Shown here one piece after another: positions 2,568 to 64,000 of a stretch of DNA of 64,000 bases; position 1 is the stretch's first letter, and each line of letters opens with the position of its first letter. Position numbers and translations under genes: made by a program. This DNA is from an uncultured Pseudomonadales bacterium (GTDB lineage Bacteria; Patescibacteriota; Microgenomatia; UBA1400; Chazhemtobacteraceae): contig CAYQZQ010000001.1 of assembly GCA_964422035.1 (NCBI GenBank), positions 249,013 through 313,012 of the forward strand, written 5' to 3'. The notes under the pieces were generated by a model, which saw nothing but the letters and a program-made list of their open reading frames with translations, was not told the DNA's origin and ran no database searches.

Positions 2568-4544
2568 TTACTGCAAGTTAATTTTCAGATCTCCTGCAAC
2601 CTCTTCTTCATAAACATTACCGTTGTAGATGATTTGGTGTTTGATATTGGATTTACCTGGTTGCTTTTGAATCATAAGTGGCAAGTCTTGGGAGTATTCA
2701 CCTGAGAGCCTGTATTTGAAAACAAGCTTACTTGAAGACTGAGGTCGCAAGGTAAAGGAAGACTCAAAGACGGTTTTGCCAAGATCTTCACTTTCAGCTG
2801 CAGCTGTTTCTGAACCTATGACCTCAATTAACTGGGCACCCTTGGGAACATATAATCGAACCCATTGATGCAAAACGGCATTCAGACAAAGACCGGGAGC
2901 TTCTGGATCGCAGTTGGATGAAGGGTGGGGGTTGTTGTAGTTGATGGTAACTGTTTTTTCTACTTGACCATTATTGTTGGTGATTTCCTGTTCGACGGAC
3001 TGCTCGACAAAGAGGTTAGACTTAGCACCGCCAAAGTTAGCGTCATTGATATGAAGATAATCGCCATCAAATGGTCTGATTCTGCCAGCAGCTTGGAAAC
3101 TTTCAGCTGAATCTTGGGAACTTTCGTCAAAGAAATAGAAGAGTAAGTGCTTTTCTTGAATAGAACTAAGGCCAACGTTAAGTAATTTAGGCCATAAATG
3201 CTTAGGTGAGCCCATGGCATTAGCTAGAATTGAGTGCATTAAGGGACCTAAAACAGCTTTTCTATCCTCCCTTATATAACCAACTTGTCTGGTGGCGATG
3301 TTTTCTAAAGCGTAAACGACTTGAGGAATATTCCAGCGTTCATCTATTTCAGCACTAAACTCGCCCCATCCTCCTACTCCAACCGGACCAAGTACTTCTA
3401 GAAGACGAACCGGAACTTGTGTATCGATGGCGATAACTCCATCGACTTCTCGAGTGCCAGGAACATCTCTGAAATGGCCCATGAAAGTGTCCATGCTTGT
3501 TTTAAAATCTGGACTTAAGTTCATGTTGCGCAAGTGCCAGGTGTACTCATCTAAAAACTTCTTGATAGCTGGAGGTGCTTCAACGTTTTTGTTGAATCTG
3601 GCATCCAGATGGTAAATATCGCGTGACTCAAGCGGGGTAATCTTGCCGTTATGAACCTTTATATATGCGTAAGCGGTCAGAAAACCTCCGGTAGGCCGTA
3701 TTTCTCCGTCGTTTTGGAAAAGAAGTAGATAAATTTTTTCTTCATCTTGGCCTAAAAGTTGAGGTAGTAACTCGATTAGTGGCTTGGACTCGGAAAGGGC
3801 TTTCTGAGATTCTTTGAAGGTGTCTTGAGCTTTTGTGATGTTAGGTCTTATTTTTTTGCCAGCTATTGAGTAGGGGTAGTGGTTGGGATTGATCTGATCT
3901 AGCTCTTCTTGTGCTTTCTGAAGATCTGAGTTTATTTCCTCAAGCTGTGGAGAGATGGCATCAAGAGTTTGAGTGAGGAAGAGTATTCTTTCTTCAGCAG
4001 TCTGGGTCTCTACCTGGCCTTGACCTCCTTTGGCTTTAAAGCCAAGCAAGTCCGCATACGGATTTATAGCTGTAATTAGCTTTTGGCCTGCTTGAAGAGA
4101 ATGAGAGGCAGCATTAAGACCATGTTGTCCGTCAAGGTAGTAGATGCGTAAACCGGGAACAAATTTAAGCCAAACCAATCTTTGATATCGCTTATCGACT
4201 GTTTCTAGACTTTGCTTGGTTTCATCAAGGTGAGTTTGGGCGGCAGCAAGATCCTGATCTTGAATGCTGTCTACAATTTGTCTGCCTGAGTTTGCGGTCT
4301 CTTGTAGTGGTTGGCGCATGGAATATGCAGGAATACCAATGGCAAGGCTTAGGAGAAGAATAAGAGCCAACAAGCCACCCACTATGTATATTGCAGGGGA
4401 AAACTTTGCAGAAAAACCTGAAAATTTGGGAAGTGAGAGAGATTTAAATGAAAAACTAGGCAAACTAAATTTCTTTTTAGTCTTTTTATTATTCTCAGTC
4501 TCTTGAGAATTTTCTTGGTCGTTGTCTATCTTTTTTAGCTCCAT
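2568..4544 (-). CDS. Large N-terminally anchored extracytoplasmic protein, DUF4012-like
   Basis: 658 aa. It has a Lys/Ser-rich cytoplasmic tail with repeated FSxPxFS units (FSLPSFSFKSLSLPKFSGFSAKFS), then one TM (IYIVGGLLALILLLSLAIGI), then a long soluble domain. The motif YLLLFQNDGEIRPTGGFLTAYAYIKVHNGKI resembles the DUF4012 core as I recall it. Confidence 0.4.
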   Translation of the reverse strand: MELKKIDNDQENSQETENNKKTKKKFSLPSFSFKSLSLPKFSGFSAKFSPAIYIVGGLLALILLLSLAIGIPAYSMRQPLQETANSGRQIVDSIQDQDLAAAQTHLDETKQSLETVDKRYQRLVWLKFVPGLRIYYLDGQHGLNAASHSLQAGQKLITAINPYADLLGFKAKGGQGQVETQTAEERILFLTQTLDAISPQLEEINSDLQKAQEELDQINPNHYPYSIAGKKIRPNITKAQDTFKESQKALSESKPLIELLPQLLGQDEEKIYLLLFQNDGEIRPTGGFLTAYAYIKVHNGKITPLESRDIYHLDARFNKNVEAPPAIKKFLDEYTWHLRNMNLSPDFKTSMDTFMGHFRDVPGTREVDGVIAIDTQVPVRLLEVLGPVGVGGWGEFSAEIDERWNIPQVVYALENIATRQVGYIREDRKAVLGPLMHSILANAMGSPKHLWPKLLNVGLSSIQEKHLLFYFFDESSQDSAESFQAAGRIRPFDGDYLHINDANFGGAKSNLFVEQSVEQEITNNNGQVEKTVTINYNNPHPSSNCDPEAPGLCLNAVLHQWVRLYVPKGAQLIEVIGSETAAAESEDLGKTVFESSFTLRPQSSSKLVFKYRLSGEYSQDLPLMIQKQPGKSNIKHQIIYNGNVYEEEVAGDLKINLQ

Positions 4545-4587
4545 TAATCCAGTTTACCGTTTTGTTAAGGGTTAAATCAATACTTGC

Positions 4588-5238
4588 CTACCACTTAGAA
4601 ATCATAGCCAGAGGAGTACGCAGGATTATAAGCAGATCGTTGATAATGTTTCTTTTGTTGGCGTAGCGGGCGTCTATCTGAACTCTTTCATCCCAGGGGA
4701 TGTCGTTTCTGCCTGACACCTGCCAACGCCCGGTTAGTCCAGGTTTAACTCTCAAACTTTCGTCGATGTAAGCCTCAATCTTTTTTCCATAGCGCTTGAT
4801 GGCATCATCAAGTTCTTTTTGGACATAAGCTCTGGGACCAACTAAACTCATCTCTCCCATGAAGATATTAAAAACTTGAGGAGTTTCATCCAGTGATGTC
4901 TGTCTCATTATTTTGCCCAGCTTGGTGATTCGAGGATCTTCATCAAGACCCAGTTTCCATCCTTGCTTTTTATATTTTTCGTACAACTTTTTATCTTTTT
5001 CCCAGTATTTGACTGCGTGAACCAGTTCTCCATCTACTTTGAACATGCGCATAGAACGGAATTTGAGCATTTTAAAAGGTTTTCCACCTTGGCCAACCCT
5101 GATTGGTTTGTAAAAAATTGGACCAGGTGAGTCAAGTTTTATTAAGATGGGAATAATGATCCAGATGGGAAGAAAGAGAACAGCGAGAATTAGAGAAGCA
5201 ATGATATCAATCAAGCGCTTAGTTATTTTATAAAACAT
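4588..5238 (-). CDS. Small polyprenyl-phosphate phosphoglycosyltransferase (bacterial sugar transferase, PglC/WbaP C-terminal-domain type)
   Basis: 216 aa. It has an N-terminal re-entrant hydrophobic helix. The motifs SLVGPRA and KPGLTGRWQVSGRNDIPWDERVQIDARY are canonical for the PF02397 sugar-transferase family. Confidence 0.8.
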   Translation of the reverse strand: MFYKITKRLIDIIASLILAVLFLPIWIIIPILIKLDSPGPIFYKPIRVGQGGKPFKMLKFRSMRMFKVDGELVHAVKYWEKDKKLYEKYKKQGWKLGLDEDPRITKLGKIMRQTSLDETPQVFNIFMGEMSLVGPRAYVQKELDDAIKRYGKKIEAYIDESLRVKPGLTGRWQVSGRNDIPWDERVQIDARYANKRNIINDLLIILRTPLAMISKW

Positions 5239-5243
5239 TAATT

Positions 5244-6365
5244 TTAGGTGTATTTATTAAGTTTTTGCTTTTTGAGTAGGTTAACTAATTTTTTGACATC
5301 TTCTGCTTTGTCTTTGTGGCAAACTAAGAGAGCATCTTTGGTATCGACGATGATTAAGTCCTCCACACCAATTGTAGCAATTAACTGATCATCAAAGTGA
5401 ATAAGAGTGTTTTTTGTATCTATACTATGGTGACTACCCTCTTGTCCGTAGCTGATAACCACATTTCCGTCCTCATCTTTTTGTGAGAGGTCATAAACCG
5501 CCTGCCAATCTCCAATGTCACTCCAGCCGAATTTACCGGGAATGACAACGAGTTTGTCTGTTTTTTCCGAGATGGCATAGTCAATTGAGTCTGGACGAGC
5601 TTGTTTGTATTGCTCTATTAAAACGTCTTGTTGATCTGACTGGCCTATCGATTGATAGATTGTGTCGATGTTTTTGTATAAATCAGGGTCAAGTTTTTTG
5701 AATTCATCCAAGATGGTTTGTGAAGGCCAAACGTAGTTGTTGGCATTCCAGTAGTAGTTGCCTGCTTGAAGGAAACTTTGAGCTGATTTCAGGTCAGGTT
5801 TTTCTTTGAAGGCAGTGACTTTGTGAACTTCAGTACCGTTTACATCTCTCATCTTTTCTCCTGCCTCAATGTAACCTAGGCCGACGTGAGGAAACTTAGG
5901 TTGGATACCTACGGTAACAATCAGTTTTTCTTGAAAGGCTACTTTAGCAGCTTGCTTAAGTGTTGTTTGATATAAATCGACATCGTTAATAAGATGATCT
6001 GTGGCCAAGTTAATAATGACAGCATCAGGATCTTGTTTGTGAATATGAGCTGCCGCTACCCCCATGGCAAGGGCGGTGTTTTTCTTTTCTGGTTCTCCGA
6101 TTATGTTTTCTTCAGGAATAAGGGGTTCTTGATTTTGAATGTCCTCAACGTAGCTATCATTGGTGATAACAAAAACTCTTGAAAGAGGAATTAGATCTTT
6201 GACTCTTTTGATGGTTTGCTGGAAAAGTGTGTGGTGATGAAAAAGAGAGCTGAATTGTTTAGGGCTTGATTTGCGGGAGCGAGGCCAAAGTCTGGTACCT
6301 GTACCGCCAGCCAGAAGGCAGATATATGTATGATCTAGATAGTTTTCTGTTGATGGTTCTCCCAT
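5244..6365 (-). CDS. manC: Mannose-1-phosphate guanylyltransferase (nucleotidyltransferase domain only, no cupin/PMI domain)
   Basis: It carries LLAGGTGTRLWPRSR...PKQF, EPEKKNTALA, GIQPKFPHVGLGYIE and FKEKPD..AQSFLQAGNYYWNANNYVW, followed by SIDYAISEKT. Together these are the ManC/CpsB motif set. Confidence 0.75.
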   Translation of the reverse strand: MGEPSTENYLDHTYICLLAGGTGTRLWPRSRKSSPKQFSSLFHHHTLFQQTIKRVKDLIPLSRVFVITNDSYVEDIQNQEPLIPEENIIGEPEKKNTALAMGVAAAHIHKQDPDAVIINLATDHLINDVDLYQTTLKQAAKVAFQEKLIVTVGIQPKFPHVGLGYIEAGEKMRDVNGTEVHKVTAFKEKPDLKSAQSFLQAGNYYWNANNYVWPSQTILDEFKKLDPDLYKNIDTIYQSIGQSDQQDVLIEQYKQARPDSIDYAISEKTDKLVVIPGKFGWSDIGDWQAVYDLSQKDEDGNVVISYGQEGSHHSIDTKNTLIHFDDQLIATIGVEDLIIVDTKDALLVCHKDKAEDVKKLVNLLKKQKLNKYT

Positions 6366-7459
6366 AGAGTTTTGGTTTTTTGTTTAGTTAATTTTTGAAA
6401 ACGAGATTGGTTAAAGTTTTCAGCTTGATGTTGACATAGTTTATCAGAAAACTGATTAGTCATGTTTTCAAACTGACCAATAGTTTTGATGATAGCAGAT
6501 GGAGTTTGGTTTTTGAAAAACAAGCCAGTTTTACCCTCAATGACTGTTTCGGTGGCGCCACCTTTTTTATAAGCAATTACGGGAGTGCCAGCGGCCTGAG
6601 CTTCAAGAGGAACTATGCCAAAATCTTCCAACTGAGGAAAGACTAAAGCTTTAGCTTGAGAGTAGAGACTGCGCAGGTGCTGATCACTGACGTGGCCAAG
6701 AAACTGAATGTTTTGCTTAGCCATTTTTTGGAGCTTGTTGATCTGTGAGCCGGTACCAACTATTTTTAACTTTTTTTCTGACATTTGGTTGAAGGCTTTA
6801 ACTACTATGCTGGTTTTTTTGTATGACTCCAAACGAGAGACTAAAAGATAGAAGTCTTGTGTTTGCTGAGTGTCAGCTGAAAAGTACTGATAATTAACGG
6901 GTGGATAAATAACTTGCGACTGGCGATTATAAAATTTCTCAATCCTTTTTTGTACGGTTTTGGAGATAGCCAGATACTTATCTGGCCTTTGGGCAAAGAT
7001 ATAATCGCGTTTTTTAAGTCTTGGGCGGAATAGTTTGAAAAAGGGTTTAATCAGAGGAGACAAAAGACCAAAAGCGGGGTGTTTTAGATAATCTTGTTGA
7101 GCTGACCAAAGATATCGAGTGGGAGTCAGACAGTAACAGATATGCAGGGTGTCAGGCTTGGTAATAATACACTTGGCTGACTCTGAGGTGAGAGAAATGA
7201 CTAGATCAAAATCACGGAAGTCAAAACTTTCAAAACCTAAGGGGGCCAGGAGAGCTAAAAGCTGATGTCTAGTGCGTAAAAATTTAATTTTATTAAAGAA
7301 ACTAGGAATAACCTCTATGTGGCTGGCCCAGGTGGCAGTCCGGGGATTATGAACCAAGGTGTATAGGGGAGCATCCGGGAAAACTTTATGAAGTTGAAGT
7401 AGCAGTCTTTCCGCCCCACCAAACTTATTTACCCGATCGTAGACTAGTGCAACTTTCAT
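6335..7459 (-). CDS. GT4-family glycosyltransferase
   Basis: C-terminal EDFGIVPLEAQAAGTPVIAYKKGGATETV (E-x7-E GT4 motif). The track ORF starts at 7519, but the likely start is MKVALVYDR at 7459, whose ATG overlaps the upstream gene's TGA as ATGA. Confidence 0.8.
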   Translation of the reverse strand: MKVALVYDRVNKFGGAERLLLQLHKVFPDAPLYTLVHNPRTATWASHIEVIPSFFNKIKFLRTRHQLLALLAPLGFESFDFRDFDLVISLTSESAKCIITKPDTLHICYCLTPTRYLWSAQQDYLKHPAFGLLSPLIKPFFKLFRPRLKKRDYIFAQRPDKYLAISKTVQKRIEKFYNRQSQVIYPPVNYQYFSADTQQTQDFYLLVSRLESYKKTSIVVKAFNQMSEKKLKIVGTGSQINKLQKMAKQNIQFLGHVSDQHLRSLYSQAKALVFPQLEDFGIVPLEAQAAGTPVIAYKKGGATETVIEGKTGLFFKNQTPSAIIKTIGQFENMTNQFSDKLCQHQAENFNQSRFQKLTKQKTKTLWENHQQKTI

Positions 7460-8571
7460 GATTTTGCTGAAAGAACCTGTTGATAAGCTTGTAGTGTTTT
7501 TAGGGCTGTTTTTTTCCAAGAAAATTTGGTTACATGTTTTTTGCCTCTTTGGGAGAGCTCCTGTCTTAAGCTTTGATCTTGAACAATTTTTTCAAGCTTT
7601 AAGATAAAGTCTATTTGGTCGTGTGGGTCAAAATATAGAGCCGCATCTGAGTAAACTTCGGGCAGGCAGCTGGCAGATGAAGATAGCACAGGTAAACCAA
7701 CCCTCATTGCTTCCAGACCAGTTAATCCAAACCCCTCCAGTAAAGAAGGTTGCACTAAAGCTAAGCCTTGAGAATAAAGCTGAGCCATCTCATCGTCGGG
7801 AACATAACCTAAGGGCTTTATGTACTTGGTAGTTGAGAATCTGTCATGAAAAGCGTCACGAGCGCTTATTAGAGCCAAGGTGACTTTGTTGTGGTGATTT
7901 TTGTTGTACTGCTTTACTGCCTTAACCAGAAAGTCAACGTTTTTATGAGGATATAAATTGCCAGTATAGACGATAAATGGTTTTTGGAGTTTGTATTTGG
8001 AGAGAATCTTTTTATCTACTTTACGGGGGATTTTGAAATCACTGGTGACAGCTTCGTAAGTAACATGGATTTTTTGGGGATCAAGAGACATGTTGTTGAT
8101 TAAGTAATTTTTCCAGTAATGAGAGGGGGTAATGACGGCGTTTGATTTTTTGATGGTTTGATTTAAAACCAGCTTGTACCCCAAGCGCTTGACTTGATAC
8201 TGCCAGGGCGGCAAGGTACTGGTTTTAGTGCCAGTTGAAAAGTGTTTTATTAAATCATGTAAGGTGATAACTAGTGGCTGGTTGTAAAAGATGGGAGCAT
8301 TGAAATGAGGAACATGAAGAAGATCAAGATTTTGCTTTTTGAACTTGAATAAATTGACTAACTGCTCAGAAAAACTGTAAATTCTAGTCTTTAAGGGGAC
8401 GATTTTAATTTGAGAGGAGTTAAAGTCTTGTTGCAAAAGATCTGGATCTCCAAAAAGTACATACTGGTTTTTTTTATCAAGATTTATTAACTGACGAAGA
8501 AGATTTTGAGTGTATCGGCCGATACCGGTGTGTTTAGGGCCGTATAGACGTGCATCAATACCTATTTTCAT
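7456..8571 (-). CDS. GT4-family glycosyltransferase
   Basis: N-terminal MKIGIDARLYGPKHTGIGRYTQNLL and C-terminal EGFGLTGLEAMRVGLPVLSSSASCLPEV. Confidence 0.85.
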   Translation of the reverse strand: MKIGIDARLYGPKHTGIGRYTQNLLRQLINLDKKNQYVLFGDPDLLQQDFNSSQIKIVPLKTRIYSFSEQLVNLFKFKKQNLDLLHVPHFNAPIFYNQPLVITLHDLIKHFSTGTKTSTLPPWQYQVKRLGYKLVLNQTIKKSNAVITPSHYWKNYLINNMSLDPQKIHVTYEAVTSDFKIPRKVDKKILSKYKLQKPFIVYTGNLYPHKNVDFLVKAVKQYNKNHHNKVTLALISARDAFHDRFSTTKYIKPLGYVPDDEMAQLYSQGLALVQPSLLEGFGLTGLEAMRVGLPVLSSSASCLPEVYSDAALYFDPHDQIDFILKLEKIVQDQSLRQELSQRGKKHVTKFSWKKTALKTLQAYQQVLSAKS

Positions 8572-8586
8572 GTTTGTTGACCTAAT

Positions 8587-9507
8587 TTAAGACAATTTGT
8601 GTTTTAACACTCTGAAAAAACCTAAGAGTGAGATACCGCCCAGAACAAAACTAGTAACTATTTTGGGGTACTTATCTTTATAAAATTTCCTGTAAAAGAT
8701 CTTCATAGCCTTTACTGATGATTTGGCTACTTTAACTCGAGTGGCTTTAGGAGGTTTGGCGATTTCTTTGCTTTCCTTCCTTAAGCCTGAGCTGGCACCC
8801 TTATAGTGCATAACGACTGTGTGAGGATAGTAGACAATGTCTTTTCCAGCTTGATGTATCTGGTAGCAAAGGTCGATGTCTTCACCGTAAAAGAAGTACT
8901 CTTCTCCCCAACCACCAACTTGTAAAAAGAGTTCTTTGGGCATTAATAGATATGATCCAGCCGCTACCTCGATAGAGTGAGTTTCGTCAAAATTTTTGTA
9001 TGACTGGTAATATTGATTGAAGAGTTTGCTTTGGGGAAAGAGTCGGTCTAGGAAAGTGAAGTGGGTAATTGAAGTCCAGGGAGTGGGAAAACCGCGATGA
9101 TTGTCTGGATCTAGATCACCTGAGGCGAGTTTGAGCTTGACGGTTAAAGCCCCCACCTGAGGGTTCTCTTGCATGTATTTGACCGGTTTGGTTAGTGAGT
9201 TTTTGTTGACGACGGTGTCTGAATTTAGAAATAGAACGTATTCTCCGGTAGATATGTCTACCCCTTGATTGTTGGCAGCTGCAAAGCCGGTGTTATCCTT
9301 GTTAGCTATTAACTTTACCTGAGGGAATTCCTTTTTCACCATAGCAACACTGTCATCGGGGGAGTTGTTGTCCACTACTATAATTTCCAAACCACCCTCT
9401 GGGTGATCTGCTTTTTGTAGTGACTCAATGCAGTTTTTTAATAAGTTCTTGGTGTTGTAGGAGATGATGATAACTGAAAGTTTGTTTTGATATTTAGACA
9501 TTGGCAA
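8587..9507 (-). CDS. GT2-family glycosyltransferase
   Basis: LSVIIISYNTKNLL...EIIVVDNNSPDDS, with the DxD motif in LFLNSDTVV. Confidence 0.85.
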   Translation of the reverse strand: MPMSKYQNKLSVIIISYNTKNLLKNCIESLQKADHPEGGLEIIVVDNNSPDDSVAMVKKEFPQVKLIANKDNTGFAAANNQGVDISTGEYVLFLNSDTVVNKNSLTKPVKYMQENPQVGALTVKLKLASGDLDPDNHRGFPTPWTSITHFTFLDRLFPQSKLFNQYYQSYKNFDETHSIEVAAGSYLLMPKELFLQVGGWGEEYFFYGEDIDLCYQIHQAGKDIVYYPHTVVMHYKGASSGLRKESKEIAKPPKATRVKVAKSSVKAMKIFYRKFYKDKYPKIVTSFVLGGISLLGFFRVLKHKLS

Positions 9508-12114: not shown

Positions 12115-12116
12115 GG

Positions 12117-14924: not shown

Positions 14925-14927
14925 AGT

Positions 14928-15563: not shown

Positions 15564-15575
15564 AGGATCATTCTA

Positions 15576-16691: not shown

Positions 16692-16700
16692 AGCCTTAGA

Positions 16701-21747: not shown

Positions 21748-21759
21748 GGGACTAGTATA

Positions 21760-44453: not shown

Positions 44454-44524
44454 AGTGGCTTATATTTTTCTGTATTATATAGCAAACTTTTGTATGAAAC
44501 AGAAAATATAGGTTGCTATTATCA

Positions 44525-45355: not shown

Positions 45356-45373
45356 TTCTTACTACTTTACATA

Positions 45374-51563: not shown

Positions 51564-51583
51564 AAATAAGCTGTGTTGTAACT

Positions 51584-54356: not shown

Positions 54357-54433
54357 AAGTAACCCGTTTAATTTATAAATAATTGAGCTTCATGACAGCA
54401 TATCATAGCTCTAAAAAGACAGGGTCTTTACTA

Positions 54434-56463: not shown

Positions 56464-57330
56464 TTAAGTGGATTTTTGTTTTAAATTAAGCATCGATATT
56501 TGGTCTGCCAACAACCCAAAGAAGAAGAGCAGCATGCCTAAAACAGTGATTAGAATAGAGCTATTGGGGACTCTGGGACCGATGATAAAGCCATAGAGAG
56601 CCCATGATAATCCTAAAAAAGTAGTAGTTAAACTGGCTGGAAAAAAAAGCTTCAAAGGGTTAAAAAGCATGATAATACGCATAATTAAGAGTAAAGTTTT
56701 GCTGCCGTCTTTGATTAAGTTCAAATTACTGGGACGACCTTGTCTTTTTTTGGTTTTGATGGGAAAGGTGGCTACATCGTGACCCAGTTTATAAAAAGCA
56801 AAAGTGGAGGTGGTAGAAAATGAAAACCCATTAGGCATTAAGTGAAGTAAGTTGAAGATCTTTTGGCGGTGAAAACCCCGAAAACCAGAGTTAAAGTCTG
56901 GTAGATCCTGTTCTAGAAGATACTGGCCAAGTTTTTTCAAAACTGCTTTGCCAAGCAACCTAGATTGATGTTGAGAGCTTTCGTCGGTTCTCTCTCCTAT
57001 GACCAAGGGGTGCTTGGGTAAAAGTTTTTTCAGCTGATCTAGATATTTTATTGAGTGCTGACCGTCTGAATCCATGGTTATGATAAACTCAGTTTGGCTG
57101 TATCGAATACCGGTTTTTAGGGCAGCTCCATAGCCTTTGTTTTGAGTATGAGAGATGATCTTGATAGGGTATTTTTTAACTATTTGTGACGTTTTATCTG
57201 TAGAACCGTCATTGACAACTAGAACGTCCATTTGTTGGTGGATATTGTTTTTAATGAGCGAGTCCAAGACAGAGTTTATTGACTCGGCTTCATTGTATGC
57301 AGGAATGATGAGAGTGGTATTAGTTTTCAC
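56464..57330 (-). CDS. Polyprenyl-phosphate sugar synthase (GT2; GtrB/ArnC/DPM1-like) with C-terminal TM helices
   Basis: TLIIPAYNEAESINSVLDSL...VVNDGSTDKTSQIVKKY. Two C-terminal TM helices (LLLIMRIIMLF... and LLFFFGLLADQ) end in the ADQ/LL tail typical of GtrB-type enzymes. Confidence 0.7.
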   Translation of the reverse strand: MKTNTTLIIPAYNEAESINSVLDSLIKNNIHQQMDVLVVNDGSTDKTSQIVKKYPIKIISHTQNKGYGAALKTGIRYSQTEFIITMDSDGQHSIKYLDQLKKLLPKHPLVIGERTDESSQHQSRLLGKAVLKKLGQYLLEQDLPDFNSGFRGFHRQKIFNLLHLMPNGFSFSTTSTFAFYKLGHDVATFPIKTKKRQGRPSNLNLIKDGSKTLLLIMRIIMLFNPLKLFFPASLTTTFLGLSWALYGFIIGPRVPNSSILITVLGMLLFFFGLLADQISMLNLKQKST

Positions 57331-58585
57331 TTTTTGAAATTTTGCTTGCTAATTGATTGATAGATGATGTGACAACCGGAAAAGTAAAGCTGGTGGCTAC
57401 AATTAAGGGATATAAACTAATAAAATGTCTTTTCATGGCATTATATAAAAGAGCTTGCCACGAATTAAGAGGAAGAAAGCGCAAACGACTGGCTAAAGCC
57501 AGAGCAAACCAGGTTAAAGAATAAAATAAGGTGACAACTGAAATAGAATTAAATAATTTTTTAAACTTGGTTAATGACTGAACAATAAGGCTAGTTAAAA
57601 AAAACAACGCCAAACCACCAGATAAAGAAGGAAGAAAATAGTGAAATAAAGCTTTTGCAGTTGCTAAAATCATAAAAGGGAGATCATTAACAATAGTGGG
57701 AACATTTTTGAATGAGTTAACTTGAGTGCTTGAGAGGTCAAGATGATATTTTTTAAAGTACCCCCAAGGAAGGGTGAAAAGGGTATAGAACAGAATAATG
57801 ATAAATAAGTGGCGGTAGTTTTTAGTTCTTACAAATTTATAAGCTATCAATATAAGGCTTGTTAGAAAAAAGGGTAAATTGGCTGGCCGAGTCCAGGCTG
57901 CAAAGGAAAGCATAGCACTAGTAAGGGTTAAGGAAGATAAAGAAGAGTCTGTAAGATAGTTAGCCAGATATAGTCCGGACAAAGAAAGATAAATCATATA
58001 AGGAAAATTTGTGTAAGCAATGCGACTTTGAAAAAAAGCCCAAGGAATAGAGACAACAAAAAGACAGGCTAAAAGAGCGGTGAGAGATTGAGAACGCCTT
58101 TTTATATAGGAAAAGAAGACCAACAAAAAACCAATTAAAAGGAAACTATAGAAAACCTTAGGATTTGAAAAGCCTAGAATGTAAAGGGCAGTGTGAGCCA
58201 ACGAGGTGTACAAAGGATAGCTGCCATGATAGCTGTTACCTATTCCTGTGATGTCTCGGTGATGAACGAAAAGTTTGGCTCTAAAATCATACATTGTGAG
58301 AGTATCGAAAAAATAAGGAGGGTAGTACCAATTGAAAATAAAGTTAAGTATGACGACAGATAATACAAGTGCGAGAAGTAATATAGAAAATGAATTGAAT
58401 TTCAGCTTAATCTTGTTTTTTTTGATGAGTTTAACCAGCATTAGTGATAGTAGTGAGGCTGGCAAAAAACTTAATAATAAACTGGTTAAATTGATGGGAA
58501 TGTTTAAAAAGACATTAGACAAGAACCAAAAAAAGGTGGTAAATGGAAAAATGGAAATGATACCTATACCAATAGCTTCAATCAT
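57320..58585 (-). CDS. Polytopic membrane protein (GT-C-like candidate)
   Basis: 421 aa with about 11 TM. Confidence 0.45.
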   Translation of the reverse strand: MIEAIGIGIISIFPFTTFFWFLSNVFLNIPINLTSLLLSFLPASLLSLMLVKLIKKNKIKLKFNSFSILLLALVLSVVILNFIFNWYYPPYFFDTLTMYDFRAKLFVHHRDITGIGNSYHGSYPLYTSLAHTALYILGFSNPKVFYSFLLIGFLLVFFSYIKRRSQSLTALLACLFVVSIPWAFFQSRIAYTNFPYMIYLSLSGLYLANYLTDSSLSSLTLTSAMLSFAAWTRPANLPFFLTSLILIAYKFVRTKNYRHLFIIILFYTLFTLPWGYFKKYHLDLSSTQVNSFKNVPTIVNDLPFMILATAKALFHYFLPSLSGGLALFFLTSLIVQSLTKFKKLFNSISVVTLFYSLTWFALALASRLRFLPLNSWQALLYNAMKRHFISLYPLIVATSFTFPVVTSSINQLASKISKSEN

Positions 58586-59108
58586 TTTGCAGGTTGATAA
58601 TTCCCCATGGTGGTTTTTCCTGTATTAGAGTCACTTGGCTGGGAGGATAGTCCTTGCGGGGCCAGAGATACTGGTCTTGTTCAAGTCCGGAGACTTCTCC
58701 CCAAATCAAAAAAACGTGAGTGGCAGATGCAGGAGGAGGATGATTGACTGACTCAGGGCGAACAAGTTTGCGAGGATATAAAAAGTAGTTCATATATAAC
58801 CCGGAGGAGGTGTTAGGCCAAGCTGGGCCAGAGGGTGGCAGAGCAATGACTGCATCTGGGGGGAGATTATTTTGAGCGTATTGAATGAAATCAAACAAGG
58901 GCGAGCCTAATTTAGACTTTAGGCGTTGGTCATATGGCAAACGAGAGTTATTAATGATGAATTTTAATTCTTCTTTATCTGAAATAAGAAAGTAGAAGTT
59001 GATAACCAGGGAAATAGCAAGGATAAACAAGACGATAGGGTGTTTTTTAGTCAAAAGTAATGGCTGAATTTTAAAAATATATTGTCCATGTGATTTGTCT
59101 TTGGCCAA
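58578..59108 (-). CDS. Hypothetical single-pass membrane protein with Pro/Trp-rich extracytoplasmic domain
   Basis: 176 aa. TM at IVLFILAISLVINFYFLI. No known domain. Confidence 0.45.
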   Translation of the reverse strand: MAKDKSHGQYIFKIQPLLLTKKHPIVLFILAISLVINFYFLISDKEELKFIINNSRLPYDQRLKSKLGSPLFDFIQYAQNNLPPDAVIALPPSGPAWPNTSSGLYMNYFLYPRKLVRPESVNHPPPASATHVFLIWGEVSGLEQDQYLWPRKDYPPSQVTLIQEKPPWGIINLQND

Positions 59109-60507
59109 TTATCTGCTGATTTTCTAAATTGTTGTTAAAGACTGCTTTGAGAAAACTTATCAGGCCTTGGTTAATTATAGGTGATGAACGGAAGATTGAC
59201 ACTTTTTCTTTGTTTTTGGTGTATTTTGAAAGTTTTTTAGAGTCTAAATGTTGAAACTTATTCCAAATTATTATCATTTCATTTTCCTTACCTTGAGGAT
59301 TTTTTTGCCAAATATAATATGCTTGAGGGCTAAGATCATAAAATAGATCTAGATGTTGACCGGTCTCTTTAAACCACTCCTGGGCGTTGATGTCTCGATT
59401 GAAATTAAAATAGATTGTGGTTTGATTATTTGAGTATCGGGCTAATGTTGAGATCATTTCGCTGTTGGCTTTTTCTCGAGCAAAATAACCGGAGACAAAA
59501 ATGAAAGAGTTGAGAGATGAATAAAAAAGGGAAAAAATAATAAATGGAACCCAGATCAGTTTTGTTAAAAGAGAGCCCTGTCTGCAGGCTTGAAGTAGGT
59601 AAAAAGCTATAATGATACTTAAATGCAAAACAACTGGGAATAGATAGCGTAGTAAAGAGTGGGGCCAAAATGAATGAAGAATTAGATATGAGAAAGCTGC
59701 TATGAAATTCAAGATTACTAACGGAGGTATTGTTTTATTCTTAAAATAGTCTTTGAAAATTAATATGCCAGAAATAGCAAGTAAAAAGAGATGACCTGAG
59801 TTAAGGAGATGGATAAGATTTTTTTTGAAAGTATTAAGTATGAGACCAAGATTAAAAGTTGTGTTAGCAGCATAGCCTTTTTGTGTGAGAGCAAAAGAAA
59901 GCAATAGAAGAATGCTAGAGGCAACTAGATTAAAAATTAAGTAAATAGATTGTTTTTTAGTGAGTTTATCTTTGATTAGAACAGCCGCCATTAAAAAGAC
60001 TGGAAGCAGATAAAAACTGGTTTCTTTGCTAGTAAATAATAAAAATGAGGAGAGAAGAGCAGGCCAGAGCTTGTTTTTATAGGCAAACCAAAGGGATAGA
60101 ACAAGCCAAAGAACCAATAAAGTTTCCTGAGTTCCTAACCTCCAGAAATTGATGACTGTGCCGGGAAAAATAAAAGTTAACAAAATCGACAGAGTAGCAA
60201 AGTACTTATTTTTAAAGTTTTTAAAAAATTTAAAAAGCAGGACAATTGTGACAAGTAAAATCAATAACTGAAAAGCGTGGTGAGCAAAAACGGAAGTGCC
60301 AAATAGCTTATATTTGAATTTGTGGAATAGCCAATATGATGGTCGTAGTCTGCCCAGGTTTTTATCAATAAAAAAAAGATTAGACAGTTTTTGACTCCGG
60401 AGATTGGTAAGAATTTGACCATCATCGATAAGTGACCATGGGAGAAGAAGTGAGGGGAGATAGAAGGAAATTATAATTGTAATTAGAATAAAGAAAAGAA
60501 AAAGCAT
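59071..60507 (-). CDS. GT-C fold glycosyltransferase candidate (DD first-loop motif)
   Basis: SLIDDGQILTNL follows TM1. About 12 TM helices. Confidence 0.5.
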   Translation of the reverse strand: MLFLFFILITIIISFYLPSLLLPWSLIDDGQILTNLRSQKLSNLFFIDKNLGRLRPSYWLFHKFKYKLFGTSVFAHHAFQLLILLVTIVLLFKFFKNFKNKYFATLSILLTFIFPGTVINFWRLGTQETLLVLWLVLSLWFAYKNKLWPALLSSFLLFTSKETSFYLLPVFLMAAVLIKDKLTKKQSIYLIFNLVASSILLLLSFALTQKGYAANTTFNLGLILNTFKKNLIHLLNSGHLFLLAISGILIFKDYFKNKTIPPLVILNFIAAFSYLILHSFWPHSLLRYLFPVVLHLSIIIAFYLLQACRQGSLLTKLIWVPFIIFSLFYSSLNSFIFVSGYFAREKANSEMISTLARYSNNQTTIYFNFNRDINAQEWFKETGQHLDLFYDLSPQAYYIWQKNPQGKENEMIIIWNKFQHLDSKKLSKYTKNKEKVSIFRSSPIINQGLISFLKAVFNNNLENQQIIGQRQITWTIYF

Positions 60508-60518
60508 CGTGAATGGAT

Positions 60519-62735
60519 TTAGAGCTTATGTAGGTGCCAAATGTATGAAGATGAATAGGTGGGAATCAGAGGAGTGCCTGACTCAACAAGCGTTTTTAAG
60601 CTGTCTTTAAGAATAGGATTATACTGCTGAGTCTTTGTTTCAATTTTTTTGAGCAAAACATCATCGCTGAGAGAGCTAATTGGGATTTGATTGTCAGGGA
60701 AAGACCAAGTTGCTAAAAATTCTACATCGCTTTTTTCATTAAATAGGCTGGTTTTAAGATCTGACCTATTATGAAATAGTCGAAAATGCCTCTCTGCTTC
60801 ACTAATCCACTCATAATGATTAGGGTTCTTTTCAAAATTAAAGTATAAGGTTGAATTTTTGGGCATACTTTTTACTGCGGTATCGACCATCACGGCATTA
60901 GCTTTCTCGCGGGCGACAAAGTCTGTAGCAATATTTAATGACTGAATGGTGTTGGTAAAAATAAAATTTGCCCAATAGTAAACAAAGACACCCAGTAGTA
61001 TTACAAAAATTGGATTCTTTAATGAATACTTAATTTGTCGATAAGTTTCGAAAGCGATGAATAGACCAATGGCAGGGAGAACAGGTGTTAAATAACGCCC
61101 CAGAGCTAATTTCCAAGGAAGCAAGATCAGAAAGGAGGCTGACAGCCAAACCAGAGATATCAGTGAAATTTTAAGTCTATCCTTTTTAATTGCTGCAATC
61201 ACTAAAGAAATACCTGACAGTTGAAGTAGTCTGGACAGCCAGGAGGAATCAAGTTGGAGCTTGTATTCTTGAAAAGTCTTAAACCAAGTCTGAAGATCAA
61301 CTTTAAAATTTGATGAATAATTTTGCTTGCCATAATTGAAAAATCTAGCAATAAAAATGTATGCTATGCCAATTAGTGAAGTTAAAAATAATTGTTGCCA
61401 TGTCTTCTCGTTTTCTTTGTCAATAAGTAACCCCAGTAGTAATAAAGGGACAACAAATATTGCTGTTTCTTTGGTTAAAATCGCAGACAAGATCAAAAGT
61501 GGGCCAACAATCTTTCCCAGCCATTTTTTTTTAAACTCAAAAGCTAGCACTATGCCTAACAACAAAAATAAAGTCATGGGTATTTCTTGAGAGACAAGTC
61601 GGTAAAAGTTCTCAACATTGCGATAAAAAAGCAAAGCTGGCAAAGAAGCTAGGATTCCTACAAATTTGGATTTGGTTAGTTTATAAGATATGTAATAAAC
61701 AAGTGATATTAATGATGCTGAGAATATGATTCTCAAAATATGGAGAGTAAATGAATTATTACCTACAAACCAGTACTGTATAAACATGAACAGCCAAAAA
61801 ATGGGCCTGCTTCTACCAGTCCTAGATTCTAATAATAACCAGTCAAGTTCTCTAAAATTTAAATTAGTAATTTTGGACACAAATTCATTTGACTTGTCGA
61901 TTACTAAACCATCATCGATTAATGAAAAAGGTAGCTGAAGAGAAGATTTCATTATAAGCAATGAAATGATTACTAAAGCAAGCATTGGCCAGTACTGAAA
62001 AATTGATTTACGATGCCAGGATGAGAGATTTTCTCGAAGAAAATAGAATTTTAGTTTGACTAAATCTTTTAATGTTTTTAAGCCTCTGACAAATATTGAT
62101 GACCTAGACTGTCTTTTTTCTATAACTGATATTGGCAACTCTCCTATTTCAAAATTATTCTTTTGAGCTCTAAGCAATAGCTCTGTATCAAAAAGTTCTT
62201 TTGTCATCCGCGATTGTTTAATCAGCGGCAAAAATTTCTTTCTCTTGAGAATTTTTATCCCATGAGTATCAGATATTTTTAGGCCGAAAAGCATTTTCAA
62301 GATTGAACTAAACACTAGTGTTGCAAAACGACGATGAATTGACCTTGTATCTTGGGATTCCGGATCCAACTTGCTACCGACTACCACGTCATATTTATTC
62401 ATTTTGAGAATAGCTTGATCAATAAAATTTGTATCATAGTAATCAAGATCAAATAGTACTAAGTAGTCTCCATCTGCAGCTAAGAAGCCCTTTTTAACAG
62501 CCAGACCATAATCCGGATTGGGAGAGGTAAGCACTTGGACATCCTTGGTGCGCTTTGCATATTCCTGGGCTAGTTGTAGGGTATTGTCACTGCTTCCATT
62601 CTCTGAGACTATCAGTTGCCAGTTGAAAGAGGTTTTGTTTAGTTTCCAAACTAGTTCGGGTAAGAACTTAAAAAGGTAATTCTCTTCATTGTGGATGGGA
62701 ATTATTATGGAAATTTTGGGAGTATCCTGGTTCAT
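60519..62735 (-). CDS. Fusion protein: N-terminal GT2 (polyprenyl-phosphate sugar synthase-like) plus C-terminal polytopic GT-C-like domain
   Basis: N-terminal ISIIIPIHNEENYLFKFLPEL...VSENGSSDNTLQLAQEY...FDLDY (GT-A). After about 240 aa come at least 11 TM helices, with SLIDDGLVIDKSNEF after the first TM. This is the same LIDDG motif as in 59071..60507. Confidence 0.65.
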   Translation of the reverse strand: MNQDTPKISIIIPIHNEENYLFKFLPELVWKLNKTSFNWQLIVSENGSSDNTLQLAQEYAKRTKDVQVLTSPNPDYGLAVKKGFLAADGDYLVLFDLDYYDTNFIDQAILKMNKYDVVVGSKLDPESQDTRSIHRRFATLVFSSILKMLFGLKISDTHGIKILKRKKFLPLIKQSRMTKELFDTELLLRAQKNNFEIGELPISVIEKRQSRSSIFVRGLKTLKDLVKLKFYFLRENLSSWHRKSIFQYWPMLALVIISLLIMKSSLQLPFSLIDDGLVIDKSNEFVSKITNLNFRELDWLLLESRTGRSRPIFWLFMFIQYWFVGNNSFTLHILRIIFSASLISLVYYISYKLTKSKFVGILASLPALLFYRNVENFYRLVSQEIPMTLFLLLGIVLAFEFKKKWLGKIVGPLLILSAILTKETAIFVVPLLLLGLLIDKENEKTWQQLFLTSLIGIAYIFIARFFNYGKQNYSSNFKVDLQTWFKTFQEYKLQLDSSWLSRLLQLSGISLVIAAIKKDRLKISLISLVWLSASFLILLPWKLALGRYLTPVLPAIGLFIAFETYRQIKYSLKNPIFVILLGVFVYYWANFIFTNTIQSLNIATDFVAREKANAVMVDTAVKSMPKNSTLYFNFEKNPNHYEWISEAERHFRLFHNRSDLKTSLFNEKSDVEFLATWSFPDNQIPISSLSDDVLLKKIETKTQQYNPILKDSLKTLVESGTPLIPTYSSSYIWHLHKL

Positions 62736-62770
62736 TAAATGACTTATTGTTGATCTGGGGCAGGATATTT

Positions 62771-63619
62771 TTATGCTTGTTTACAAGCCGTTACCTTCAT
62801 TATATCCCAAAGATTAACTGGAACAACAAGAGAGTTAATTTTTTTTGGAATTGATAGTTTTAAATCATAGAGACTGCCAAGTTTGTGTGAAAGATATGAT
62901 AAGGGATAGTAGGCAGGGGGATGAGAAATTTGGATATCTGAAAAACCAATTGAGGACAACAGGGTCTTGATAGTTTTGGGTGAAAAATAACTTAGATGTT
63001 GAGGGGGGTTATATAGATGCCATTTTTTACCTAATATCTTGGCTAAAAGTGAGTTTACATTGCCCGTCGAGAGAGCAAACCTGCCACTGCCTTTTAGAAG
63101 ATCAAAGATAATTTTTAAATCTTGCTTGGGGTTGTTCAAGTGCTCTATAACATCCCACATGGTAATCAGGTCAAACTTTTCTCTTGGAAATGTGTTTGAT
63201 TCTAGTTTGCCAATTTTGATGCTGGCATCGGGATTATTTTTTTTAGCTTTCTGGGCTGCATGGGATGAAATTTCGATTCCAAATTTATTCCATGAGCTTG
63301 GCATTTGTTGTAAAAAATACCCATAAGCACAGCCAAAATCCAAAGCGTTTCCCTGGCTCTCTTTTTTAATGCTCAAACTATCAATTCTACACTTGAAAGT
63401 CTGATTGAGAGATTTCTTCTCAGTGGAGTAATCATCATAACTTCTTTTGTTCTCCCCTTGGATAAAGTAGTCTTTTTTGTAAAAATCTTGATAAAAATTT
63501 TTGTCTGGTGAAAAATTAGTAATAATTAATGAACAATCTTGGCATTCTACTATCCAAAAATTATATTTTTTGAACTTCTTTTTAAAATTTGAACTACCGC
63601 AAACACGACATTTATCCAT
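62771..63619 (-). CDS. Class I SAM-dependent methyltransferase with N-terminal Cys4 zinc-ribbon
   Basis: CRVCGS...CQDCS, then ALDFGCAYGYFLQQM (motif I), then DLITMWDVIEHL. Confidence 0.65.
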   Translation of the reverse strand: MDKCRVCGSSNFKKKFKKYNFWIVECQDCSLIITNFSPDKNFYQDFYKKDYFIQGENKRSYDDYSTEKKSLNQTFKCRIDSLSIKKESQGNALDFGCAYGYFLQQMPSSWNKFGIEISSHAAQKAKKNNPDASIKIGKLESNTFPREKFDLITMWDVIEHLNNPKQDLKIIFDLLKGSGRFALSTGNVNSLLAKILGKKWHLYNPPQHLSYFSPKTIKTLLSSIGFSDIQISHPPAYYPLSYLSHKLGSLYDLKLSIPKKINSLVVPVNLWDIMKVTACKQA

Positions 63620-63621
63620 AT

Positions 63622-64000
63622 TTATTTGTAAAGTTTGTAAATTAGAACAGTAATTTGCATTAGAAGCCAGTGAATTGCGGTAAGCAGAGGGTTGTAATTG
63701 TACCTGGACAGAACTTGCAGATCTTCTTTAAACTGCTGGTTGAATTCTTTTGAACCCTTAGATTGGGAGTGGACACGAAAAACAGCCAGCTTGTCTTTGA
63801 ACCTGTCCGGCAGGGAAACTTCAAGACAGCGAAGCCAGTAGTCATAGTCGAATGCGTAGTTTAGGCTTTGATCAAACTCCCCTACTTTGTCTACGAGTTC
63901 TTTTTTAATAAAGACAGCCGGTTGATTAATGGTGTTGAATATTTTTAGGAAAAATCTTGCTTTATCAATCGGCCAGATATGTTTTATCTTAAAAGTCCAT
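63622..64000 (-). CDS. GT2-family glycosyltransferase, C-terminal fragment (gene continues beyond window end)
   Basis: The minus-strand translation reads ...INQPAVFIKKELVDKVGEFDQSLNYAFDYDYWLRCLEV...KLYK-stop. This is a typical GT2 C-terminal region. It is not in the ORF track because there is no in-window start. The track ORF 63660..63845 is in another frame and is probably spurious. Confidence 0.55.
   Translation of the reverse strand, partial: WTFKIKHIWPIDKARFFLKIFNTINQPAVFIKKELVDKVGEFDQSLNYAFDYDYWLRCLEVSLPDRFKDKLAVFRVHSQSKGSKEFNQQFKEDLQVLSRYNYNPLLTAIHWLLMQITVLIYKLYK

Follow-up and report, generated by a model that had tools for sequence, protein, structure and literature searches.

Does a stretch of bacterial DNA that combines several routes of glycan export and assembly make one surface product or several, and was it inherited or acquired as an island? 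This question is raised by a 64-kb window of contig CAYQZQ010000001.1 (the whole stretch of DNA that was analyzed), in which a preliminary description had seen a glycan-assembly island with three export/assembly routes. We called the open reading frames (ORFs) of the window and scanned their proteins against Pfam and NCBIfam profiles, on which the family calls below are based. On balance, we consider it probable that the window carries the principal cell-envelope glycan locus of a Microgenomates-type bacterium of the Candidate Phyla Radiation (CPR), composed of a conserved Wzx-dependent core and an accessory extension. About half of the locus is common to the Microgenomates lineage, while the rest is a strain-specific add-on; both draw on known enzyme families.

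Fifty-three complete genes lie in the window. All 51 complete ORFs between 2568 and 63619 (g03–g53) encode either glycan-assembly enzymes or membrane and small proteins without a family assignment in Pfam or NCBIfam. A cut ORF follows g53 (63622–64000, minus strand) and is GT2-like by a recognized motif alone, without a Pfam hit. The glycan locus extends past the right edge of the window, which makes its length of about 60 kb a minimum (at least 61 kb). As had been described, the genes are mostly co-directional (43 of 51 on the minus strand), with five same-strand ATGA overlaps and other short overlaps besides. The glycosyltransferases (GTs) with Pfam assignments comprise 9 GT4 and 8 GT2-domain proteins, which together with the GT2-like edge fragment agrees with the earlier estimate of about 18. 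Two of the GT2 proteins are fusions: g45 joins a GT2 to a methyltransferase (MT) and g52 joins a GT2 to a GT-C. Methyltransferase genes numbered six (g32, g33, g41, g45, g47, and g53), one of them truncated-looking (g32), and not the seven first proposed. Even at lenient thresholds, Pfam and NCBIfam returned nothing usable for g13, g17, g19, g29, g34, g44, g49, and g50. Overall, the picture of a very large, multicomponent surface-glycan locus with heavy non-sugar decoration was supported, and almost all of the earlier family calls survived homology and fold tests.

The division into core and accessory parts emerged from comparison with relatives. We examined 80 loci around glycyl-tRNA synthetase (GlyRS) and the loci around homologues of g17, in each case within ±10 kb of these two anchors. 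In the window, GlyRS (623–1990, minus strand) and RecO (2012–2566, minus strand), both identified by Pfam, form the left flank outside the locus. This GlyRS is 71% identical to that of a Patescibacteria metagenome-assembled genome (MAG) and 63% identical to that of a Microgenomates-group MAG. The order GlyRS-RecO-DUF4012-phosphoglycosyltransferase (PGT)-(ManC)-GT4-GT4-GT2-GT4-GT-C was kept in about 21 of the 80 loci around GlyRS, each of them Microgenomates-type and with a GlyRS at least 52% identical. Farther into the locus, g07–g22 and the adjoining Wzx gene were colinear in three contigs (L081, L083, and L164) and partly colinear in two more (L082 and L165), whose anchoring g17 homologues are 29–41% identical to g17. 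Along the direction of transcription, these relatives read Wzx, GT2, ..., GT4, GT2, (PMT_2), g17, followed by GT4, GT4, Hexapep, g13-like, GT2, Wzy_C, PMT_2, GT4, GT2, and GT4. Identities of core proteins to the L081 orthologues range up to 70%.

Because the left block is colinear in relatives, at least 24 kb plus Wzx constitutes a vertically conserved core and not an acquired island. Positions 2568–24387 together with Wzx (32146–33384) are thus a lineage-conserved core, and the term island fails for this left half. Accessory or variable behavior, as far as ±10 kb of the relatives' sequence can show, is limited to a four-gene array resembling lipoteichoic acid synthase (LtaS) and to everything from 33.4 kb onward, a part in which GC is also lower (from about 33 kb). 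Within 85 CPR loci covering the same anchors, no homologues were found for g23–g26, g28, g29, g34–g38, g40, g44, g46, g49, g51, or g52, and g39 gave one weak match (26% identical) in a non-CPR locus (L080). Upstream of Wzx, the relatives carry GDP-mannose-dehydratase-like epimerases and other PMT or polytopic genes. A literature search for Microgenomates glycan loci returned nothing relevant, and we did not find the GlyRS-anchored core described.

Two further observations concern the relatives themselves. Seven contigs carrying the GlyRS-RecO-DUF4012-PGT block (L005, L007, L010, L019, L022, L023, and L026) are recorded as 'Candidatus Bathyarchaeia archaeon', 'uncultured Pseudomonadales' or 'uncultured Gammaproteobacteria', a taxonomic labeling of the bins that is probably mistaken. 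In L082, a gene with a Fic/RhuM domain (13548–14540) is inserted in the core between the GT4 pair and the hexapeptide acyltransferase.

The core opens with g03 (2568–4544, minus strand), which encodes a 658-residue DUF4012 protein with one N-terminal transmembrane (TM) helix (Pfam 6.9e-22) and found no match in a PDB sequence search. The adjacent g04 (4588–5238, minus strand) encodes the anticipated small, monotopic, PglC-like PGT (216 residues, 1 TM; Bac_transf 2.4e-57), and DUF4012 adjoins the PGT gene in about 20 relatives. DUF4012 is a CPR-enriched family that also adjoins the priming GT in the exopolysaccharide cluster of Bifidobacterium longum 105-A, where the PGT is of the large CpsD/WelE type and is accompanied by a Wzz gene and insertion sequence elements (PMC5412050). 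Next come g05 (within 4588–6365, minus strand), a ManC-type mannose-1-phosphate guanylyltransferase with NTP_transferase and ManC beta-helix domains, and four cytoplasmic GTs assigned by Pfam as GT4, GT4, GT2, and GT4 (g06–g09; 6335–10696, minus strand). The latter are colinear in relatives at 35–66% identity.

The remaining core genes add the membrane components. A GT-C of the PMT_2/PMT type (g10, within 10693–13508, minus strand; PMT_2 4.3e-12) precedes the protein previously described as O-antigen-ligase/Wzy-like (g11, 12117–13508, minus strand; Wzy_C 2.6e-13), and both are kept in L081, L083, and L164. Judged by its domain, g11 may act as polymerase, ligase, or O-oligosaccharyltransferase, as Wzy_C is common to all three; it contains no PglL-specific domain and has no NCBIfam match. 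The following block (13447–17798, minus strand; Pfam) encodes a GT2 (g12), a small membrane protein (g13), the acetyltransferase of the preliminary description (g14, a hexapeptide acyltransferase by its Hexapep match), and two GT4 enzymes (g15 and g16), in an order kept in five relatives. Orthologues of g13 (14331–14924, minus strand) were recovered in L081 and L083 at about 1e-62. Since g13 is so strongly conserved within the relatives' core, it is likely a real pathway component, and a role as a GacJ-like activator would be speculation.

Beyond these lie g17 (17803–19146, minus strand), a GT-C-fold protein of a family absent from Pfam, and a run comprising a GT-C (g18, PMT_2), an 11-TM protein (g19), a GT2 (g20), a GT4 (g21), and a GT2 (g22), located at 19112–24387 on the minus strand and assigned by Pfam. 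L081 keeps g18 and g20–g22. For g19, the sole Pfam signal was a weak MFS_1 match (0.0011), and the polytopic proteins found at its position in relatives are non-homologous to it. Sequence-unrelated polytopic proteins at the same position are the typical pattern of Wzy-type polymerases; g19 is a candidate Wzy polymerase or transporter. The core is completed by g27 (32146–33384, minus strand), a 12-TM Wzx-type flippase of the MOP superfamily (Polysacc_synt 2e-24, also Polysacc_synt_3), as had been predicted; it is 53% identical to its orthologue in L081 and 45% identical to that in L083.

In this genome the core is interrupted. Wzx directly abuts the g22 orthologue in L081 and L083, so the intervening array of four tandem paralogues (g23–g26; 24361–32149, plus strand) is an insertion here. 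This 7.8-kb array had been overlooked in the earlier inventory. Each protein (625–663 residues) has an LtaS/EptA-type architecture, with 5–6 N-terminal TM helices predicted by a crude hydropathy scan followed by an alkaline-phosphatase-superfamily domain (Sulfatase PF00884, 1e-27 to 1e-33), and the four are 33–61% identical to each other. The motif PWT[TV][PA]SF places an invariant Thr (Thr270 in g23 numbering) at the sulfatase Cys/Ser position in all four paralogues. None of the four deviates in the metal-site motifs DHGE and GHG. The hallmark of LtaS, GacH, and EptA is such a scaffold with a Thr nucleophile and an N-terminal multi-TM anchor. We therefore predict from these features that g23–g26 are extracytoplasmic phospho-head-group transferases, though not LtaS-family members proper.

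Two other identities were considered for the array and rejected. True sulfatases were ruled out by the signature, as the C/S-x-P-x-R motif reads T-[TV]-[PA]-S-F, with Thr in place of Cys/Ser and Phe in place of Arg. GT-C proteins were ruled out by the alkaline-phosphatase-superfamily domain.

GT-C enzymes, which use polyprenyl-phosphate-linked sugars outside the membrane, occur in both parts of the locus. PMT_2 matches were above the cut-off for g10, g18, and g28 (33368–34954, minus strand; 1.6e-10), the last of which begins the accessory part, and below it for g51 and g52, which are paralogous to each other (29% identity, E 1.8e-33). Two further members were recognized by fold. No Pfam or NCBIfam hit was obtained for g17, which has 26 homologues among 5.8 billion clusters. 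The AlphaFold2 model built from that alignment was confident (predicted local distance difference test (pLDDT) 91.7, predicted template-modeling score (pTM) 0.90), and its top 28 Foldseek hits in the PDB were all GT-C enzymes, including DPY19, AftD, STT3/PglB, AftA, ArnT (query-normalized TM-score 0.57), ALG3/9, Emb, PimE, and Pmt1/2. Similarly, g29 (34935–37088, plus strand; 717 residues) belongs to a divergent family absent from Pfam. A word-indexed search returned g29 alone, whereas a full HMMER search recovered 96 remote relatives, each about 700 residues long, with an invariant Asp136 in WxDQxxY and a PMT_2 hit in 5 of 49. Its model (pLDDT 84, pTM 0.89) best matched ArnT (3.7e-07), then OST, AglB, AftA, and ALG12.

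The preliminary description had counted at least eight GT-C-like proteins. Seven are supported (g10, g17, g18, g28, g29, g51, and g52), five by PMT_2 similarity and two by AlphaFold and Foldseek. An eighth, g49, is weakly GT-C-like, judging from a profile similarity to the g10 family (hhalign probability 51%). The 9-TM g34 and the polytopic g44, both without Pfam or NCBIfam hits, were not shown to be GT-C proteins, nor was g19. Their failure in phmmer and hhalign is uninformative, as the structurally supported g17 and g29 also scored below 50%. AftA, AftB, AftD, Emb, and PimE among the structural matches of g17 and g29 recall the assembly of mycobacterial arabinogalactan and lipoarabinomannan (AftA-D, Emb, PimE). 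There, a cytoplasmic lipid-linked chain is exported (the Wzm/Wzt-type galactan) and then elaborated outside by GT-C enzymes using polyprenyl-phosphate sugars. Unlike the mycobacterial genes, those of the window are contiguous in one locus; sequence-level orthology is absent and the sugars differ.

Donors for these enzymes could come from two proteins. The predicted GtrB-like polyprenyl-phosphate-sugar synthase corresponds to g48 (56464–57330, minus strand), a GtrB/AglJ-like GT2 with 2 C-terminal TM helices that matched the NCBIfam models AglJ, PpgS, PgfS, and dolichyl-phosphate-hexose transferase, all below cut-offs. A GtrB-like GT2 of this type also forms the N-terminal half of g52. Neither a Pfam hit for GtrA nor an unassigned 4-TM ORF of about 120 residues was found in the window. 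At 59071–62735 (minus strand), g52 joins the polyprenyl-phosphate-sugar-synthase-like GT2 to a GT-C, with g51 as a stand-alone paralogue of its GT-C half. By domain content, g52 is a predicted maker and user of the donor in one polypeptide, and we know of no characterized example of such a GT2-GT-C fusion.

The accessory part further contains the nonulosonic-acid module noted earlier. A short NeuB-type synthase without a SAF domain (286 residues; NeuB 2.9e-66) is encoded by g35, at the start of a gene pair at 42464–44453 (minus strand). Its partner g36, within the same interval and strand, encodes a CMP-sialate synthetase (CMAS) fused to a KdsC/KDN-9-P-phosphatase-like HAD domain, as assigned by Pfam, NCBIfam, and PDB matches. 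The HAD half scored 95.8 bits for KDN-9-P phosphatase and 93.5 bits for KdsC, both below cut-offs. In the PDB, the synthetase half matched PpNeuA (184 bits), mouse CMAS (137 bits), and bacterial NeuA proteins (at most 96 bits). PpNeuA is the CMAS of Prymnesium parvum specific for ketodeoxynononic acid (Kdn); its Arg196 gates Kdn versus N-acetylneuraminic acid (Neu5Ac), and an R196L mutation swaps substrate preference (PMC12934254). In a HMMER alignment, Arg183 of g36 aligns with PpNeuA Arg196, where mouse CMAS has Leu. This gatekeeper Arg was present in all 81 family members (g36 and 80 metagenome relatives), and the fused HAD domain in 68 of the 80 relatives.

The most economical reading of these data is that the nonulosonic acid is most likely Kdn, made from mannose-6-phosphate via Kdn-9-phosphate. 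Neu5Ac, pseudaminic acid (Pse), and legionaminic acid (Leg) were rejected as candidates: the window yielded no NeuC, aminotransferase, or dehydratase genes for their pathways, g36 has Arg as its gatekeeper, and its closest structural relative is specific for Kdn. The module resembles the Kdn pathways of Bacteroides thetaiotaomicron (PMC6200933) and P. parvum (PMC12934254), which use a NeuB-type synthase, a KDN-9-P/KdsC-type HAD phosphatase, and a CMAS, with g36 likewise carrying the gating Arg. It differs from them in the fusion of synthetase and phosphatase (the vertebrate CMAS layout), in retaining a Lys discussed below, and in the absence of a C-terminal SAF domain from g35. A literature search combining CPR with nonulosonic acid found no earlier report, so this is possibly the first such prediction.

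Two-gene cassettes of a short NeuB and a CMAS-HAD protein are also widespread on metagenome contigs (L084–L163). Homologues of g35 and g36 were adjacent in 66 of these 80 loci. Those of g35 shared about 60% identity with it in most loci but about 30% in a few, while those of g36 were 36–55% identical over their full length and up to 62% identical where the synthetase half alone matched. This distribution, with the invariant gating Arg, suggests that Kdn-type sugars are common in uncultured environmental bacteria. An MptE/Maf-like homologue of g37 followed in 8 of the loci. On two unrelated metagenome contigs, the neighborhood extended to export genes, with a Wzm/Wzt pair and an MT beside the NeuB/CMAS/MptE-like genes in L129, and Wzm with MTs in L090; the association of exporter and Kdn genes thus recurs elsewhere.

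Next to the Kdn synthesis genes in the window, g37 and g38 (within 42464–46501, minus strand) encode an MptE/Maf-like protein (MptE-like 7.7e-07, below cut-off) and a candidate nonulosonic-acid (NulO) transferase. A word-indexed search found one database homologue of g38. Its only family hit is to the Tannerella forsythia NulO-transferase family BFO_1060 (1.1e-05; 24.7 bits versus a cut-off of 200). It contains EDG at residues 179–181 and HP at 278–279 inside an invariant KPHPRE. D/E-D/E-G and HP motifs have been described for bacterial sialyltransferases and Tannerella NulO transferases (PMC5420450). PDB sequence searches with g37 and g38 gave nothing meaningful.

The Wzm/Wzt exporter claimed earlier is encoded by g39 (Wzt, ABC ATPase with Wzt_C) and g40 (Wzm, ABC-2 permease) at 46529–48690 (minus strand; Pfam), which overlap by ATGA. 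Matches were ABC_tran 3.4e-23 and Wzt_C 31.4 bits (cut-off 30.4) for g39, and ABC2_membrane 2.4e-19 for g40. In characterized systems, the C-terminal domain of Wzt recognizes a chain-terminating cap. Candidate caps adjoin the exporter on both sides, namely the MT g41 and the Kdn module g35–g38.

Other accessory genes surround these modules. Between the GT-C genes and the Kdn module (37060–42452), Pfam identified a GT2 (g30, plus), a GT4 (g31, minus), two MTs (g32, minus; g33, plus), and the 9-TM g34 (plus), in the lowest-GC stretch of the window. Here g32 (39134–39637, minus strand) starts inside SAM motif I (ILSLGCETCG), with about 22 open codons upstream and no ATG. Its GC of 0.325 is the window's minimum, the largest intergenic gaps flank it, and it is probably a truncated or decaying gene. 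Downstream of the exporter (48630–56462, minus strand; Pfam, with NCBIfam for g46) lie an MT (g41), two GT4 enzymes (g42 and g43), the polytopic g44, the GT2-MT fusion g45, an FrhB/FdhB-like protein (g46), and an MT (g47). Although amid a glycan operon, g46 (54434–55768, minus strand) encodes a coenzyme-F420-hydrogenase-beta-like Fe-S/flavin protein with an N-terminal CxxCxxC, and no pyruvyl-transferase domain was found near it. The final segment (56464–63619, minus strand; Pfam/NCBIfam) comprises g48, the polytopic g49, a small membrane protein without family assignment (g50, 58578–59108, minus strand), g51, g52, and an MT (g53). At the opposite end of the window, outside the locus and 3′ of GlyRS, a cut ORF (1–625, minus strand) begins with the lipoprotein-type signal MKKFLKLTLIISFALLLGACG and has no Pfam hit.

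Within the envelope-glycan interpretation, we infer the substrates, the order of steps, the joining of chains, and the final acceptor as follows. In the core, g04 would prime polyprenyl phosphate, and ten GT4/GT2 enzymes would extend the chain with GDP-mannose from ManC (g05) among the donors. The hexapeptide acyltransferase g14 would acylate the glycan, and Wzx (g27) would flip the lipid-linked product. Then g11, possibly with the variable 11-TM g19 and DUF4012, would polymerize it or ligate it to an acceptor, while g10, g17, and g18 would add sugars outside the membrane from polyprenyl-phosphate-sugar donors. In the accessory part, g23–g26 may take a phospho-head group (e.g. glycerol-phosphate or phosphoethanolamine) off a membrane lipid and attach it to the glycan once exported. 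Wzm/Wzt would export a second, cytoplasmically finished chain built by g42, g43, and g45, whose non-reducing end is probably capped by Kdn and/or methyl and read by Wzt_C. Finally, g48 and the N-terminal half of g52 could feed g28, g29, g51, and g52, perhaps also g34, g44, and g49, for extracytoplasmic branching.

The overall working would be like that of the composite wall-polysaccharide assembly of Gram-positive cocci. The rhamnose-rich wall-polysaccharide loci Streptococcus pyogenes gac and Lactococcus lactis cwps ('dual-chain' assembly) each combine an ABC exporter for a chain built in the cytoplasm with a Wzx-family flippase for a second lipid-linked unit, together with GtrB-like GT-A enzymes that make polyprenyl-phosphate sugars and GT-C enzymes that act outside and are recognizable mainly by fold; their product is one composite wall polysaccharide (PMC9574508). 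In S. pyogenes gacA-L, the LtaS-family GacH adds glycerol-phosphate (PMC9574508). The window locus likewise has an ABC exporter, Wzx, a GtrB-like enzyme, several divergent GT-Cs, and LtaS-architecture enzymes. In contrast to gac and cwps, it has ManC and a Kdn module instead of rml/rhamnose genes, primes with a small PglC-type PGT and not a GacI/J- or TagO-type system, and lacks an LCP ligase or GtrA within the window. Its four LtaS-like paralogues resemble arylsulfatases more closely in sequence than they do LtaS or GacH, its length is about double, and it belongs to a CPR bacterium.

Several observations weigh against the envelope-glycan interpretation. No Wzz/polysaccharide co-polymerase was found by Pfam among 53 window ORFs, and the window also holds no LCP ligase, WecA/TagO-type initiator, or GtrA flippase. 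Together these absences weaken the wall-polymer version and leave attachment to peptidoglycan unsupported. Ten core cytoplasmic GTs is a high count for a repeat unit and would fit a long, non-repeating, protein-linked oligosaccharide equally well. For g23–g26, the best PDB and NCBIfam relatives are arylsulfatases; matches to EptA, CptA, and YejM are weak, and LtaS is absent at E ≤ 1e-3. As the array is closer to arylsulfatases than to LtaS, GacH, or EptA, the donor we propose is a guess. Searches of the window found neither Glycos_transf_4 (polyprenyl-phosphate N-acetylhexosamine-1-phosphate transferase) nor a second Bac_transf protein, so the ABC branch has no visible initiator; it may be encoded elsewhere in the genome. 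Kdn-specific CMAS enzymes have been reported without an equivalent of NmCMAS Lys16 (PMC12934254), and g36 retains this Lys, as do 79 of its 80 relatives. Lastly, the accessory label relies on ±10 kb around two anchors, and the right-hand genes could lie farther off in the relatives.

The absence of Wzz-type and LCP genes from the window, alongside a single Wzy_C protein, also speaks for the alternative that survives best, general protein O-glycosylation, which we regard as possible though not probable. Here the core would build one long lipid-linked oligosaccharide, and g11 would act as a PglL/PilO/WsaB-type O-oligosaccharyltransferase. After flipping by Wzx, the glycan would be transferred en bloc to S-layer protein and/or type IV pilins, while PMT_2-type GT-Cs would O-mannosylate proteins directly. 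Having ten conserved cytoplasmic GTs would be in keeping with a decasaccharide-type glycan such as that of Tannerella, and CPR bacteria are rich in pilins and sortase substrates. The best NCBIfam match of g48 is AglJ of archaeal S-layer N-glycosylation, with PgfS of protein O-glycosylation scoring too. The combination of an MT-GT2 fusion, Wzm/Wzt, Wzy_C, and a PGT also resembles what we take to be the arrangement of the Geobacillus stearothermophilus slg cluster.

The Tannerella comparison extends to the accessory genes, as the T. forsythia O-glycosylation locus (terminal Pse/Leg; PMC5420450) likewise places a CMP-nonulosonate pathway beside a GT-B-like NulO transferase, and its family provides the only hit for g38. 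Parts shared with T. forsythia and slg include a PGT, many GTs, MTs, Wzm/Wzt or Wzx, and a Wzy_C-family transferase. Against this, the match of g38 to BFO_1060 is weak, the sugar here is predicted to be Kdn and not Pse or Leg, no S-layer gene lies near the locus, and no gene for an acceptor protein was found in the window. A Wzy_C domain fails to distinguish among polymerases, ligases, and O-oligosaccharyltransferases, and g11 gave no PglL-specific or NCBIfam hit. LtaS-type enzymes and an ABC exporter with Wzt_C are typical of polymers, not of short protein glycans.

Three independent routes making three glycoconjugates as neighbors (e.g. a Wzx/Wzy capsule, an ABC-exported polymer, and a Gtr-type decoration) is an unlikely explanation in our estimation. 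The components of all three routes are indeed present, as the preliminary description stated, and the modules are separable by strand or operon breaks at 24.4, 32.1, 34.9, 37.9, 39.7, and 42.5 kb. Relatives carry the core without the ABC/Kdn module, and the NeuB/CMAS/ABC association stands alone in unrelated contigs. However, the window contains one PGT, a second initiator was not found, and GT-C and GtrB-like genes are scattered among those of the core as well as those of the ABC module. Characterized loci with this mixture make one composite polymer (PMC9574508); because Gram-positive loci combine the same routes in one polysaccharide, the mixture needs no three products and is not unprecedented. 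A fourth logic, predicted phospho-head-group transfer by LtaS-architecture enzymes, had been missed beside the three.

The last alternative, on which composition bears, is that contigs from different organisms were joined or that a genomic island was acquired recently. Near 34 kb, GC drops from about 0.41 to about 0.35, and the divergent starts of g28 and g29 overlap by 20 nt (34935–34954) exactly at this drop and at the end of the conserved part; one of the two starts is probably mis-called. GC-normalized tetranucleotide correlations between the left (1–24 kb) and right (42–64 kb) ends were 0.85–0.87, matching those within each half (0.90 left, 0.88 right) and above those between the window and other CPR loci (about 0.2–0.8). 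The segment at 35–42 kb gave the lowest values against the rest of the window (0.70–0.76). Each of g17, g29, and g38 has a 100%-identical database copy, the longest contig being 725,544 bp. Polysaccharide loci usually have a variable part of lower GC.

An artefact or foreign origin is thus very improbable: the GC drop at the divergent pair, the deviating 35–42 kb segment, and the occurrence of the best g35–g37 relatives on contigs without a taxon are outweighed by the uniform signature at both ends, the identical copies, unbroken ORFs at the g28/g29 junction, the vertically conserved left half with Wzx, and the absence from the window of integrase, transposase, and phage domains (Pfam) and of tRNA genes. 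The earlier claim that mobile-element genes are missing was confirmed, and chimeric assembly is unlikely. A border formed by a regulatory RNA or tRNA was likewise ruled out by zero tRNA genes and zero Rfam matches in the window.

We thus return to a main envelope-glycan locus with a conserved core and an accessory extension. All of its parts belong to known families or folds, and its combined logic has precedent in Gram-positive wall polysaccharides, so it introduces no new principle. What stands out is the GlyRS-anchored, class-wide core, the two GT-C families absent from Pfam (g17 and g29), the Thr-type, sulfatase-derived array, the predicted Kdn pathway in a CPR bacterium, the GT2-GT-C fusion, and the scale for a reduced genome. 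An investment of at least 61 kb in surface glycan corresponds to about 8% of the 725-kb contig bearing identical copies of three of the genes, and a class-level lineage has preserved the gene order in half of the locus.

CPR bacteria (Patescibacteria) have reduced genomes and are mostly episymbionts whose envelope chemistry is essentially undescribed. We tentatively propose, as a possibility with the odds against it, that the core (about 25–30 kb: DUF4012, small PGT, ten GTs, Wzy_C, three GT-Cs with one family absent from Pfam among them, and Wzx) makes a lineage-defining Microgenomates envelope glycopolymer, to which this strain adds an ABC-exported, Kdn-capped, methylated, phospho-decorated polymer. 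If so, the core product would take the functional place of teichoic acids or secondary wall polymers, or form the glycan of S-layer and pili, and the added polymer would be similar to teichulosonic acid. As the cells are host-attached and have almost no other biosynthesis, the variable half would be read as a strain-specific surface for host or phage recognition. The conserved gene set, including DUF4012, the new GT-C family, and Wzy_C, offers targets for studying the coat, attachment, phage recognition, and immune-like interactions of these bacteria.

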